46,219 bases of DNA, from the sequence record NC_007603.1; one strand, 5' to 3'. Made by a program: the position numbers and the translations under genes. Below the pieces are notes generated by a model, which searched no databases, was not told the DNA's origin, and saw nothing but the letters and a program-made list of their open reading frames with translations. Shown here in pieces: positions 1 to 46,219 of the stretch; position 1 is the stretch's first letter; every line of letters begins with the position of its first letter. This DNA is from Escherichia phage Rtp.

Positions 1-214
1 AGCAATATTGCTTCAGATGCAATGATGTTTTTGATTGTTGCGGGTTGAGCAATGAAGTGATGAGTGAGTGAATGAAAGATTGATGGACTATCATACAAGT
101 TGATTTTGATCCTAGCTGAGCCATTTTAAGCATACGCGTTATAAAGGTTATGCCGTGTAGATTAGTCCTTCCGCGGAAATTCATACACGCCGTACCACGC
201 CAAGTTACGCCATA

Positions 215-296
215 GTTACACTATAATATCTATATATAACAACCATTTAGTGTAATTATTATTATTATATATATTACTATGTATATCATGTATATC
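215..296. repeat. about 80-bp AT-rich repeat, copy A
   Basis: TTACACTATAATATCTATATATAACAACC...TTATTATTATTATATATATTACTATGTATATCATGTA aligns at roughly 85 percent with 28088-28170. Confidence 0.7.
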
Positions 297-476
297 CCCC
301 TTGCGGGGAGGGTCGATAGTTTTTCTATGAAAATGACAATTTCTATATATATAAGGATAGGCATATACCCTCCGCGTTTTCCGCGGAAATCCATCTACAG
401 GCAAATTACATGAGCTATAGCTGGGCTTGGGCGCCCAAGAGCGTAGACATTGCCAAATATAAACACGAGATAACAC

Positions 477-504
477 TTGATAACGCGTATGTATGTGGTA
501 ATAT
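477..504 (+). promoter_or_regulatory. sigma70-like promoter (TTGATA-16bp-TAATAT, TGn extended -10)
   Basis: TTGATA at 477-482, 16-bp spacer, TAATAT at 499-504 preceded by TGG; lies upstream of the first ATG with an SD. Confidence 0.45.
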
Positions 505-545
505 GGAATCACCTTAACGAAGGGCAACCAATCAGGAGTAATAAA

Positions 546-4892: not shown

Positions 4893-4969
4893 GCCCCGCT
4901 AGCTCAATTGGATAGAGCAACGACCTTCTAAGTCGTAGGTTACTGGTTCGAATCCAGTGCGGAGCGCCA
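4893..4969 (+). tRNA. tRNA-Arg (anticodon UCU)
   Basis: Hand-folded cloverleaf: acceptor GCCCCGC/GCGGAGC (one C-A mismatch), D-arm GCTC-AATTGGATA-GAGC, anticodon arm ACGAC-CTTCTAA-GTCGT, T-arm ACTGG-TTCGAAT-CCAGT, encoded CCA. Confidence 0.7.
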
Positions 4970-33738: not shown

Positions 33739-33803
33739 TGTGTAAAGTCTCCATTTGTAAAATAGCACGAATTGCTAAGTTGGATTGTAGCATCTTTCAG
33801 GCA

Positions 33804-34807: not shown

Positions 34808-35281
34808 TTACTCTTTAGCTTTTCGTGCTGCCTCATTAGCGGCCTTGATCTTTCTCCATGAACGACACTCTGGTTTGGTTGCTAACTCGGACTCAGTAAC
34901 CACACGCAGCATGTGACGCTTCTTGCACCGTAATGTCAGCGGCTTTCCGTTGCCGTCGAATTGCAGGTCTGGTCGGCAGAATGTAGCGCGAAAACCTTCT
35001 CCATTTCGCTTGTAGTAGTTGTGAGAAAGCTGAGCGCCGCGAGCAGATATCATTCCACGCTTAAACCATTCCTCTACAGCCTGTGGTGTTACCTTTAACT
35101 GCTTTGCGATATTCGCCTTTGTGCCGAAGAAATCAAGAACAATCTCCAGTCGCGCGCGCAACCCTGCCCTTACTTCATCTTTCAAAACGTAGTAACCTGA
35201 AGGTCGTTTTCGTTGTTTTTTGTCTTCAGTGCGGACAGTTCCGTTATTACCGTTGATTGTTCTCTTGTCGACTGTATTCAT
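34808..35281 (-). CDS. putative HTH DNA-binding protein
   Basis: IAKQLKVTPQAVEEWFKRG resembles a Cro/C1-type helix-turn-helix; basic N-terminus. Confidence 0.5.
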   Translation of the reverse strand: MNTVDKRTINGNNGTVRTEDKKQRKRPSGYYVLKDEVRAGLRARLEIVLDFFGTKANIAKQLKVTPQAVEEWFKRGMISARGAQLSHNYYKRNGEGFRATFCRPDLQFDGNGKPLTLRCKKRHMLRVVTESELATKPECRSWRKIKAANEAARKAKE

Positions 35282-42192: not shown

Positions 42193-43776
42193 TCACCCCA
42201 ATAGTCGTGGATTAACGTAAACTTTATCACCAATCAGGCACGTATAGTTTTTCTCATCAAGCATTGGCAGTAAGCGATCTTTAATCTTTGTCATTACACC
42301 AGCTTGAGCCTCAAACGGCTTAACCTTTCGAGCTGCCTCATACAATGAACGAATACCAACTACACCTTTCCCGTTCTTGCCTTGCTTGATCAGTATATCA
42401 ACCAGCTTGCTCATCTCAGCATGGTCGCCAGCGTGACCAGCAGCGTTAGCTGATGACAGATACGTCTTGCTCAGCTCCTGGAACATAATCACAGCTTCTT
42501 GCATGGTATCAAGTTCAATCTCTCTGGATTTCTGTGGACTACCGCCATTTGGGTTGAACCAGTTGCGCACAGTGTGAAGAACAGCTGCAATCCTGATGGC
42601 CTGCTTATCGAACTTACCCAACGCGCCACGTAACATTGTGTGTGAATACTTCCCGCCATCTGCAAGGTGAGGCTCCATCTCCTGACGCGCACGGTTGAGG
42701 TATTTCATCGCTGAGTTGCTCACTGTCAGCTTAACATCTTGCTCATTCATTATTTCATGAACTAAACGGAAGTAATCTGCCTTCAGCTCGCCATTAATTG
42801 GTTCGTATGTTGAGTTGCCATTCTCATCAACGAATACGCGCTCACCAAGGAATGATTTTTCACGAACCAAAAGGAAACGTTCAGATACACCGATACCACG
42901 CGCACCAGCATTCATGATGGCGTTGATTGTTTCATCCTGCGCAATTACAGAGATGCAACCCATAGCAACGAAACTCATGTTATTTTCTGCGTTGGCACGC
43001 GCGATAGATACGTTACCGGCATCCCATGCCTTAAGCACAAGTTCGCTGTTCGTTTTCTTAGAGCCATCACCATAGGTCATGCCAAGAAGTGAATTGACGC
43101 TAGTTGCTTCATCCGAGATTACAGCGAAGTTACCCTGTCGGTTGTTTATTCGCGCAAGACCTTCCGGAGTGGTATCTGACACTGGAAATACGATATCGCA
43201 CATCTTTTCCAGCTTTTCCTCTAAATCCTCTTTTTCCTCAAACAGCGCCGCCATCTCTGATGGTGACTTCTCCTGCTTCATCTCTTTTGATAATACAGAT
43301 AGTTTTGCCATGATCTTCTTGCGCTCACGCTTTCTCAATTCATTCAGTCGCTCAGTCTCAGCAATCATTGGAGCAATTGAAAGTGAGTTGATGGCTGATT
43401 TACCTGTCGATGGTGGTTGGCTTGTCACGACATAAAGCGAAGTTGGCTGCTGAGTTCCATGATACTCAACAGTAAAACGGCCCAGCATGGCAGCGGAAAT
43501 ACACCCCAGAAAGTGCATATAAGCTGAAGACTCAGGGAACTGAACAGAACGGGCAATATTGGCTGAAAGCTTACCAACAACATCAATGTCATTACCGAGT
43601 GAGATTACGGGATACTTGTCATTAGCCGCATCAATCTCGACTGGTGCTTTCCAGAATGATTGAGACTGACGATAGCCATTAGCATTAATAGCGACGCGCA
43701 GGGGTGGGAGGTTGTCTGCGGCAGCAATTGCCATAACCTGTTCAACAGATAGTTTATCTTCGTTGAAATCAAACAT
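42193..43776 (-). CDS. P-loop NTPase (putative replication / primase-associated ATPase)
   Basis: 527 aa; Walker A-like PPSTGKS; cassette promoter variant upstream; function not resolved. Confidence 0.55.
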   Translation of the reverse strand: MFDFNEDKLSVEQVMAIAAADNLPPLRVAINANGYRQSQSFWKAPVEIDAANDKYPVISLGNDIDVVGKLSANIARSVQFPESSAYMHFLGCISAAMLGRFTVEYHGTQQPTSLYVVTSQPPSTGKSAINSLSIAPMIAETERLNELRKRERKKIMAKLSVLSKEMKQEKSPSEMAALFEEKEDLEEKLEKMCDIVFPVSDTTPEGLARINNRQGNFAVISDEATSVNSLLGMTYGDGSKKTNSELVLKAWDAGNVSIARANAENNMSFVAMGCISVIAQDETINAIMNAGARGIGVSERFLLVREKSFLGERVFVDENGNSTYEPINGELKADYFRLVHEIMNEQDVKLTVSNSAMKYLNRARQEMEPHLADGGKYSHTMLRGALGKFDKQAIRIAAVLHTVRNWFNPNGGSPQKSREIELDTMQEAVIMFQELSKTYLSSANAAGHAGDHAEMSKLVDILIKQGKNGKGVVGIRSLYEAARKVKPFEAQAGVMTKIKDRLLPMLDEKNYTCLIGDKVYVNPRLLG

Positions 43777-43962
43777 TACTTCTCTCCGTGTTGTTTCTGA
43801 GCGGCCATTATATCAACGACCGCTTATAATTCATTATCAATTTGTGCTATTAATTGTTCTTAATCCACTTTAGACACATCCAGGTGCCAGCAACGTAAAG
43901 CGCTAGCTTTGCTAACTCGTACGCTAAGTGTGTAAATAAAGCAAAATTAGAAATAAGCTCAC

Positions 43963-44202
43963 TCATTTTTTAATCTTCATCTCCAGAATTTCATAACTTA
44001 TGTAATTATTTATCATTCCAATAAGTGATTTTGGGTATGTTTTCATATGCTTCTTGGCTGAATCTTCATCAAGATGCGCTGATATGTTGTGATAATTGTA
44101 TTCATAATCCATGCCCATTAGTACGTATATCTTATCGTGCGCATTAATGAAGTTATTTGATTTTATTTCCCCAAGCGACCAGCCCTTTCCTTTTCTAATC
44201 AT
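43963..44202 (-). CDS. hypothetical protein (79 aa)
   Basis: ORF track; ATGA coupling with the upstream gene. Confidence 0.45.
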   Translation of the reverse strand: MIRKGKGWSLGEIKSNNFINAHDKIYVLMGMDYEYNYHNISAHLDEDSAKKHMKTYPKSLIGMINNYISYEILEMKIKK

Positions 44203-45545: not shown

Positions 45546-45749
45546 TCAGAAGTTACCAAGAACCAAAGACATTTGCTTGCGAGTCTTGCACTCAGACAGC
45601 TTACCGAATAAAGTCTTGGCCTCAATATCATTAGCCTGTTTTGCATAGAATGCGCAGTCACAGGCAATATCTTTAACAGCGCGGCGAGCTACCTGAATCT
45701 GCATTGCGATTTCGTTTAAAGTGTTCTTGATTGCGATATCCATCTTCAT
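45546..45749 (-). CDS. hypothetical protein (67 aa)
   Basis: ORF track; first gene downstream of the leftward promoter cassettes at the window end. Confidence 0.5.
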   Translation of the reverse strand: MKMDIAIKNTLNEIAMQIQVARRAVKDIACDCAFYAKQANDIEAKTLFGKLSECKTRKQMSLVLGNF

Positions 45750-45875
45750 TCCCTCATCTCGTTTAACTTAGTGTTTTTAGAGGTTCGCTTTGATGCCATC
45801 GCTGCTTGAGTGGTTATCCTGTTCCTTCAGGAGGCCGTTCGGCTCTTTACTTCCCACCCCGTTCTCTATGTACTA

Positions 45876-45918
45876 ACTATACTTCTTTTCTTCACTGCCG
45901 TTTTAACAAAAAGTGCTA
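45876..45918 (-). promoter_or_regulatory. palindrome-promoter cassette (minus strand)
   Basis: Minus-strand TAGCACTTTTTGTTAAAA; 22-bp spacer; TATAGT. Confidence 0.45.
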
Positions 45919-46117
45919 TTTACTAACTTTCTACTTCATTTACTTCTTTCGAGGAACCCGGTCAGACTTTGCTGCCGGAGAAGGTGTCTGGGAGTTTACC
46001 TATTCGGAAGTGACTCAACGTGCCCTTTCTCAACACTTGCCGGCATTTTTCATCCGGACGATTCGACCTCTGGGAGGCAGCTACTTGGCGTTCGCTTCAC
46101 TGCTTCCTTGAGATACA

Positions 46118-46159
46118 TATTACCAGTTTCTCGATTTATGTCTTTAGCAAAAAGTGCTA
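46118..46159 (-). promoter_or_regulatory. palindrome-promoter cassette (minus strand), second tandem copy
   Basis: Minus-strand TAGCACTTTTTGCTAA, about 20-bp spacer, TAATAT. Confidence 0.4.
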
Positions 46160-46219
46160 TTCGTTGGATTTATGGATTGTTGAAGATATTGCAATGATTC
46201 ACATGATTATTGCACGTAT

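Follow-up and report, generated by a model that had tools for sequence, protein, structure and literature searches.

What is encoded between the two leftward promoter cassettes at the end of the genome of coliphage Rtp (Drexlerviridae; record NC_007603.1)? The window considered in the current analysis is the complete 46,219-nucleotide (nt) genome of this phage, and the cassettes in question lie close to its last position with no evident gene between them. The interval is a non-coding unit located between two promoters of the activator type, each made up of a consensus marbox (the site associated with the host proteins MarA, SoxS and Rob), 18 base pairs (bp) and a -10 hexamer, with no usable -35 hexamer. 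Within it a 96-nt core has been identified that recurs in three groups of coliphages. This core appears to be a rare, cross-family and undescribed element, and the functions considered for it below are proposals drawn from sequence.

Distribution of the core

The DNA at positions 45975-46069 of the window is 85-88% identical, in blastn comparisons, to unannotated intergenic DNA of Seuratvirus (SLUR75, WildeMaa and SA80RD) and of Vequintavirinae (LTH01, UPEC06, A7_1, A5-4 and A73); for the Drexlerviridae ZL19, BUCT-XGG-1 and PH1062 the identity is 94-97%. These carriers account for the 11 hits obtained among 50,697 phage records (3 Drexlerviridae besides Rtp, 3 Seuratvirus and 5 Vequintavirinae), Rtp's own record not being counted among the 11. 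The covariance model finds one copy per genome, and the flanks of the core are unalignable between lineages. The parts of the RNA interval in Rtp are given below in the direction of transcription, with columns referring to a structure alignment (A1) of 9 sequences and 97 columns.

46069..46109, minus strand: variable 5' leader of the untranslated RNA, about 41 nt (alignment of ten loci)
45973..46068, minus strand (46068→45973): conserved RNA core, 96 nt; present once in the window, with a covariance-model score of 113.8 bits
46057-46040, minus strand: P1 hairpin, columns 12-15 with 26-29, GAAAA loop
46030-46024 with 45984-45979, minus strand: long-range helix, columns 39-46 with 86-91, which never varies
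46016-45992, minus strand: P3 hairpin, columns 54-64 with 70-78, GAAUA pentaloop in Rtp
45920..45972, minus strand: variable purine-rich 3' part of the interval, running into the second cassette and unalignable between lineages

The 5' leader has GAAGCAGTGA, which is also seen near the start of the LTH01 RNA, a likeness noted by eye with no statistics attached.

No counterpart of the core is present in 5,426 complete Escherichia coli genomes or in plasmids. Searches with longer patterns gave nothing in 100,044 species genomes, only the window itself in IMG/VR, and one match in metagenomes (L130) that was judged to be due to chance. A 14-mer scan of IMG/VR yielded 120 loci, all of which, except the window itself, proved to be chance matches when analysed by nhmmer. 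A 25-mer of P1 also occurs in a dnaG coding sequence (RVQMKKAGK; gammaproteobacterium L18, L140 805-829); the flanks are dissimilar, and it is considered a coincidence and not the sign of a primase-derived relic. Rfam 15 gives a single match in the whole window, a tRNA, and over 45700-46219 only sub-threshold matches to mir-505 and, on the other strand over a cassette, to ES003. Literature searches on the core sequences and on phage non-coding RNAs have returned nothing on point.

Predicted structure, strand and constraint

RNAalifold and a model of our own agree on P1, the long-range helix and P3. In the model 96% of the alignment cells pair, as against 38-50% when partners are slid. Compensatory changes are observed at three pairs (14/27, 60/74 and 63/71), the first of which (G-C in 4 sequences, A-U in 5) switches inside Drexlerviridae. 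Overall pairing is 96.3% for the minus strand versus 91.7% for the plus strand, 13 cells with G-U would become C·A mismatches if the plus strand were read, and among the variable pairs four favour minus and one favours plus. This pattern of wobble and pairing, taken with the promoters, points to a leftward RNA.

Variable columns are concentrated in P3 (13/23, versus 5/64 elsewhere; Fisher p = 5e-6), a clustering of substitutions that indicates strong constraint on the remainder of the core. Its internal loops and tails are large and invariant, which suggests that a protein or a base-pairing partner recognises them, and not that the core is a compact self-contained fold. We infer from these comparisons that the core functions as an RNA of the minus strand, comprising P1 and a long irregular hairpin that is tipped by P3 and has invariant internal loops.

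Absence of a conserved gene in the interval

Two open reading frames (ORFs) of the plus strand overlap the interval, and relatives reveal that they are not genes.

45806..46197, plus strand: span of two ORFs (45806-46111 and 45913-46197), not genes, with stops or frameshifts in relatives

Of these, orfA is broken by an in-frame stop or a frameshift in BUCT-XGG-1, PH1062, SLUR75, LTH01, UPEC06 and A7_1, and orfB is broken in ZL19, PH1062, BUCT-XGG-1, SA80RD, SLUR75 and WildeMaa. The small ORFs of the minus strand are also not conserved, there being a 1-nt insertion in SLUR75 and WildeMaa; a candidate of 24 amino acids (aa) is frameshifted in these two phages and was rejected. A possible leader peptide, MKNAGKC, was likewise set aside, as two of its three substitutions are non-synonymous and a conserved ribosome-binding site is absent.

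The original prediction, made from the letters of the window, had considered the interval to have no convincing ORF and the plus-strand ORFs to be artefacts, and the stops and frameshifts in relatives bear this out. A conserved protein-coding gene in the interval, one of the observations set beforehand to count against an RNA, has not been found among the relatives compared. The further suggestion that the interval may encode a small RNA or a long regulatory leader gains support from the comparison: there is no conserved ORF, the core occurs in three families and is conserved across the lineages, three pairs show compensatory changes, the wobble pattern favours the minus strand, and a co-oriented promoter is present in every lineage.

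Promoters around the core

In all three lineages a co-oriented promoter lies 40-110 nt upstream of the core. The promoters and the first leftward gene of Rtp are as follows.

46141..46160, minus strand: box of the upstream leftward cassette, ATAGCACTTTTTGCTAAAGA, marbox-like and 20 bp long, with its centre at about -41 relative to the inferred start
46117..46122, minus strand: upstream -10 hexamer TAATAT, preceded by TGG, exactly 18 bp after the box
45900..45919, minus strand: box of the downstream leftward cassette, marbox-like ATAGCACTTTTTGTTAAAAC
45876..45881, minus strand: downstream -10 hexamer TATAGT, exactly 18 bp after the box
45750..45868, minus strand: leader of the first leftward gene, about 119 nt from the inferred start to the ATG at 45749
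45546..45749, minus strand: first leftward early gene, 67 aa (ORF list), with a homologue in PH1062 that is 42% identical

Transcription probably starts at about 46109 from the upstream promoter and at about 45868 from the downstream one, both positions being placed from the -10 hexamers in the register of the E. coli micF promoter. The upstream box is an exact fit to the marbox consensus GCANNWWNTGNNAAA, has at most one mismatch to AYNGCACNNWNNRYYAAAY, and is identical at 15/20 positions to the marbox of the E. coli mar operator, ATGCCACGTTTTGCTAAATC. In the alignment of ten loci the downstream cassette is kept in ZL19, BUCT-XGG-1 and PH1062. Its leader of about 119 nt, originally estimated at about 130 nt, is unusually long, the other cassettes having leaders of 25-35 nt with ACCCCATCGAAACGAAAC, and is conserved in close relatives only. 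It was considered as a duplicate of the first leader; the similarity is not significant. The 67-aa product of the first leftward gene has no Pfam match and belongs to no known family.

In LTH01 two sigma-70 promoters (11/12) on the same strand flank the core, which gives the same tandem-promoter and ORF-free layout as in Rtp. In SLUR75 the upstream promoter is of the box type and the core lies within the 5' untranslated region of the first early gene. No terminator-like site has been found after the core in Rtp, LTH01 or SLUR75, nor anywhere in 45920-46105 of Rtp. The genes downstream of the core are small and early, and are unrelated between lineages. A comparison of all ORFs of Rtp and SLUR75 reveals a shared helicase, tail proteins and an 86-aa protein, the last of which is present in 768 phage records; none is shared specifically by these two phages, and no phage protein co-occurs with the core.

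Relatives of Rtp without the core (phiA2-1 and AugustePiccard) share with it the upstream DNA and the cassette, which in them drives the first gene through a leader of about 35 nt. Since the upstream cassette serves the first gene directly in these relatives, the RNA unit looks like an addition and the cassette like a duplicate. The tandem layout of Rtp thus appears to reflect an RNA unit that was added along with a cassette of its own, and the core looks like a portable accessory module exchanged by phages.

Proposed role of the core and competing explanations

Tentatively, and with well short of even confidence, we propose that the core is a horizontally mobile, cis-acting and host-directed early leader RNA. 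The activator-dependent upstream promoter would fire early and produce an untranslated RNA from about 46109. After the variable leader of 41 nt the core (46068→45973) would fold during transcription, and the polymerase, meeting no terminator, would pass the second promoter and go on to transcribe the early operon. The core would act in cis through host components only, its target being either the elongating RNA polymerase or the transcript that carries the core; put-like processivity or modification of RNA polymerase, anti-Rho activity and protection of the early mRNA are the options considered. Transcripts from the upstream promoter would then differ in behaviour from those of the second promoter. 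A cis-acting leader directed at the host is the simplest proposal because the module moves among phages whose proteins and downstream genes are unrelated, and all the carriers infect E. coli.

The put RNAs are elements of about 70 nt with two stems that are located just downstream of early promoters and act without protein factors (PMC9378689). Their V-shaped two-stem fold binds the zinc-binding domain of the RNA polymerase beta' subunit and suppresses pausing and termination. The Rtp core resembles putL and putR of phage HK022 in its similar size, in being cis-encoded with two stem-loop domains, and in its location downstream of an early promoter and ahead of the early operon; its placement is of the put type, with an early promoter upstream and no terminator before the early genes. 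It differs from put in its fold, in occurring in virulent non-lambdoid phages and in having no evident terminators to override.

Several observations weigh against the proposed leader RNA. The local alignment score of the core with HK022 putL/putR equals that of shuffled controls. No strong terminator that would call for antitermination has been found in the leftward operon, and the primase gene there has its own cassette at 43850. The predicted fold is thermodynamically unexceptional (z +0.1 to +1.45, not significant), and stability was dropped as evidence of structure. Three pairs carry the covariation, the distinct sequences being 9 in number and drawn from 3 lineages, and the P3 stem is degenerate in the Rtp lineage (3/5 pairs). 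Further, the same sequence evidence would fit a role in trans as well as one in cis.

Such a trans-acting RNA is possible, though on balance somewhat unlikely. The core, released from the early transcript or working as part of it, would titrate an RNA-binding protein or an anti-phage system of E. coli, as a decoy or sponge, or would regulate a host mRNA as an antisense RNA. This would be in keeping with its patchy, accessory spread over three unrelated lineages of virulent coliphages with its own promoter each time, with the presence of extended single-stranded segments that do not vary, among them AGACACCUUCU and GAAUCGUCC, with the failure to find a partner phage protein, and with the core being the first thing transcribed in the early region. 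Like the small RNAs (sRNAs) of the DicF type it is predicted to be a short non-coding transcript from a phage promoter. Hfq-dependent sRNAs, however, end in an intrinsic terminator or U-tail, a hallmark that is absent from the core in Rtp, LTH01 and SLUR75, no defined 3' end being seen in any lineage, and no counterpart or target has been found in the E. coli genomes or the species genomes.

It is improbable that the element works as DNA and not as RNA, that is, as a single-strand initiation signal, a component of an origin, or a site for protein binding or packaging. The G-C to A-T compensation would fit DNA hairpins equally well, as RNA the fold lacks stability, and the core is located near AT-rich repeats within the large control region. 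On the other side, the wobble pattern favours one strand as RNA, the promoter always points into the core, and the three phage groups differ in their replication and packaging genes, only helicase and tail proteins being weakly shared.

There is a similarly small chance that the core is a functionless remnant of phage recombination that has not yet decayed. Its rarity (11 records), its unremarkable fold energy and its high identity, by which the transfer could be recent, are compatible with such a remnant. Yet with flanks that cannot be aligned, 59/64 columns outside P3 are invariant and the changes pile up in one hairpin (p = 5e-6); the three compensatory pairs and the promoter of its own type kept before the core in each lineage also argue against a remnant.

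The P3 hairpin invites comparison with lambda boxB (GCCCU GAAAA/GAAGA AGGGC; nutR and nutL taken from the lambda record), to which it is similar in having a 5-bp G/C stem and a G-A-A-N-A loop of which only the 4th base varies. Its sequences are GUCCC-GAAAA-GGGGC in LTH01, CUCCC-GAACA-GGGGG in SLUR75 and GUCUC-GAAAA-GAGGC in SA80RD, all with the 5-bp stem and GAARA-type pentaloop looked for, while Rtp's own stem has 3/5 pairs. The core is much larger than lambda nut and has further invariant segments. The transcribed strand of the interval has no boxA-like site (CGCUCUUA / UGCUCUUUAACAA), and over the whole genome the matches number 19 versus 20 expected, as by chance. No N-like protein was detected either: the first proteins downstream do not have an N-terminal arginine-rich motif, although a very divergent N is possible. 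A leader of the rrn type (boxB-boxA-boxC) was rejected, since boxA is absent and alignment to the rrnB leader scores no higher than it does for shuffles.

A lambda-type nut site, at which boxB-like hairpins would recruit a phage N-like arginine-rich antiterminator and host Nus factors, is therefore very improbable, for in spite of the form of P3, a weak local match to nutR (TGAGAAAGGGCA vs TGAAAAAGGGCA, p ~ 0.01) and a fitting position just after an early promoter, boxA and the arginine-rich motif are missing, the first downstream proteins are unrelated between lineages, no protein is shared specifically by Rtp and SLUR75, and Rtp's own P3 stem is degenerate.

Should the core prove functional, it would represent an undescribed RNA family that is swapped as a promoter-plus-RNA module among unrelated virulent coliphages, with a host-directed function (elongation control, mRNA protection or counter-defence) exerted without a phage protein.

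Marbox-type cassettes across the genome

The two leftward cassettes around the core belong to a set of about 20 in the genome, 15 rightward and 5 leftward.

1367, 2359, 3077, 3459, 4027, 6316, 8425, 16303, 21393, 29628, 33762, 35294, 37795, 38478, 40395, plus strand: rightward cassettes
46160, 45919, 44966, 43850, 28001, minus strand: leftward cassettes

Alignment of all the copies reveals a rigid unit with a box ATAGCAC-NNN-TTGCTAAA, 18 bp, a -10 hexamer, a short leader with ACCCCATCGAAACGAAAC and a start codon; a usable -35 hexamer is not seen. Nearly every operon of Rtp begins with such a cassette (consensus marbox, 18 bp, -10 hexamer and a leader of 25-35 nt with ACCCCATCGAAACGAAAC). The copy at 33762 does not have a good -10 hexamer and is followed by a terminator-like hairpin and not by a gene. 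The primase/helicase gene (42193-43776) has a degenerate cassette of its own at 43850, comprising ATAGCACAAATTGATAATGA, 18 bp and TATAAT (43776-43963), so that the leftward arm has four tandem promoters of the activator type.

The marbox has the non-palindromic consensus 5'-GCANNWWNTGNNAAA-3', and in class II promoters it is found in forward orientation, overlapping the -35 region and centred between -36 and -55 (PMC12052159). The window has 14 exact matches to this consensus versus 1.1 expected, a number reached in 0/100 shuffles, and 13 of the 14 are cassettes. Conversely, 13 cassettes, including both leftward boxes, have no mismatch to the consensus and 7 have one. An older 19-mer consensus, used as a second query, gives 16 matches in the window at <=1 mismatch versus 1.15 expected.

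The geometry of the cassettes is also that of class II promoters: the box is forward, overlaps the -35 region and is centred at -40.5 or -41.5 from the starts inferred from the -10 hexamers, and the gap between box and -10 hexamer is 18 bp in 18/20 cassettes. In a direct comparison, the E. coli micF promoter consists of a 20-bp marbox, 18 bp, TAGAAT and 7 nt to the annotated 5' end of micF, which is the same to the base as in these 18/20 Rtp cassettes. The cassettes thus resemble class II promoters of MarA, SoxS and Rob such as micF in consensus fit, orientation, overlap with the -35 region and the succession of box, 18 bp, -10 hexamer, 7 nt and start. They differ in that host class II marbox promoters serve stress genes, whereas the Rtp set of about 20 copies belongs to a virulent phage and drives nearly all its operons; and no MarA homologue was detected in the Rtp genome.

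The centre of the box can also be read as an inverted repeat, TAGCA-N5-TGCTA. The copies in which this repeat is broken retain the AAA of the marbox, which argues that selection maintains the asymmetric marbox and not the palindrome, and the variation at box positions 10 and 13-15 is within the degeneracy of the marbox. The sites first described as palindromes are real and are better read as asymmetric activator sites of the marbox type at about -41.

Is the box read by the host or by a regulator of the phage? From sequence comparison the two appear roughly even. No homologue of MarA or SoxS has been found encoded in the window; the only weak match of the MarA type is rtp1 (DUF7174), the first rightward protein of the window, the AlphaFold model of which (mean predicted local distance difference test score, pLDDT, 77) does not have a MarA-like fold, and it was rejected as such.

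The view that a regulator of the phage, and not host MarA, SoxS or Rob, uses the box as its operator has slightly less than an even chance of being right. The regulator would be either a 157-aa helix-turn-helix (HTH) protein encoded in the window at 34808-35281, which belongs to PHROG 2856 'transcriptional regulator', or the product of rtp1, which has weak matches to winged-helix-like folds and the gene of which has the one canonical sigma-70 promoter observed in this vicinity; the 5+5 inverted repeat at the centre of the box would suit such an operator. The asymmetric conservation, which tracks the marbox and keeps its AAA where the second half-site is broken, the confinement of variation at positions 10 and 13-15 to marbox degeneracy, and the geometry equal to micF stand against it.

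Box-type promoters are also seen in Seuratvirus. Four early promoters of SLUR75, at 59061(+), 59503(+), 58787(-) and 52823(+), have a related box (ATAGCAC-N5-GCCTA) and, like those of Rtp, the 18-bp gap. As SLUR75 shares the box and gap yet has no homologue of either Rtp candidate, the 157-aa HTH protein or rtp1, a host factor is mildly favoured.

The paper on the Rtp genome by Wietzorrek and others, in the Journal of Bacteriology of 2006, is said to have assigned 10 inverted repeats upstream of Rtp genes to a regulator, Rtp52, which we take to be the 157-aa HTH protein. The repeats of that account are the same sequences in the same genome as the cassettes described here; the present description differs in that the copies number about 20 and not 10, and in that their conservation is asymmetric and marbox-like and not simply palindromic. 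A literature search combining marbox and bacteriophage gave nothing on point. The marbox identity and the micF-like geometry of the cassettes thus appear not to have been described before, though the repeats themselves were noticed in 2006.

If the marbox reading is true, about 20 promoters of a T1-like phage would be wired to host Rob, MarA and SoxS, phage development would be tied to the signals of bile, oxidative and antibiotic stress in the gut, and the 'Rtp52 inverted repeats' of 2006 would be reinterpreted. It is unlikely that two strong claims hold jointly: that the core is a new class of protein-independent mobile phage RNA, which reprograms host RNA polymerase in the manner of put, though in virulent phages and by an unrelated fold, or disarms an E. 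coli-specific defence or RNA-binding factor, and that Rtp-like phages run nearly their whole transcription from class II marboxes, depending on or sensing Rob, MarA and SoxS.

The divergent control region

The end of the window (…ttgcacgtat) and its start (agcaatattgc…) adjoin without a break in the related phage ZL19, and are likewise contiguous in the circular record of phiA2-1. Positions 45750..46219 plus 1..545 therefore constitute one divergent intergenic region of about 1 kb, in agreement with the earlier suggestion that the two ends of the window form a divergent early control region. The two minus-strand cassettes, described as about 240 nt apart, correspond to a 19-nt direct repeat (45902-45920 and 46143-46161; 95% identical) with a spacing of 241. 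Both copies are exact ARCAAAAAGTGCTAT on the plus strand, the minus-strand reading being ATAGCACTTTTTGYT, or in an alternative writing ATAGCACTTTTTGYTAAA. A genome scan for this motif family gives 12 copies at <=2 mismatches versus 0.33 expected.

The DNA upstream of the upstream cassette (46161-46219 plus 1-60) has the motifs TTGCAAT, ATTGCA and AGCAATATTGCT, and is 92-95% identical in more than 120 records of Escherichia siphophages including Braunvirinae, in which it is mostly unannotated. The sub-threshold match to ES003, the Rfam model of an E. coli sRNA (E = 0.05), lies on the plus strand at 46142-46212, over the cassette. Two copies of the palindrome TTCCGCGGAA (169-178 and 379-388) flank very AT-rich repeats of the tatatata type located between them at 225-360; the stretch 169-388 could be an origin or operator region.

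In LTH01 (L003), the DNA at 1674-1890, located just upstream of the promoter of the RNA, includes a G+C-rich segment next to a terminator. This DNA is about 80% identical in about 170 large myoviruses (Phapecoctavirus, Justusliebigvirus and phi92), for the most part lacks annotation, and may represent a further conserved element of the non-coding kind. The tRNA gene of Rtp (4893-4966; Rfam tRNA, 65 bits) is located among the small rightward early genes.

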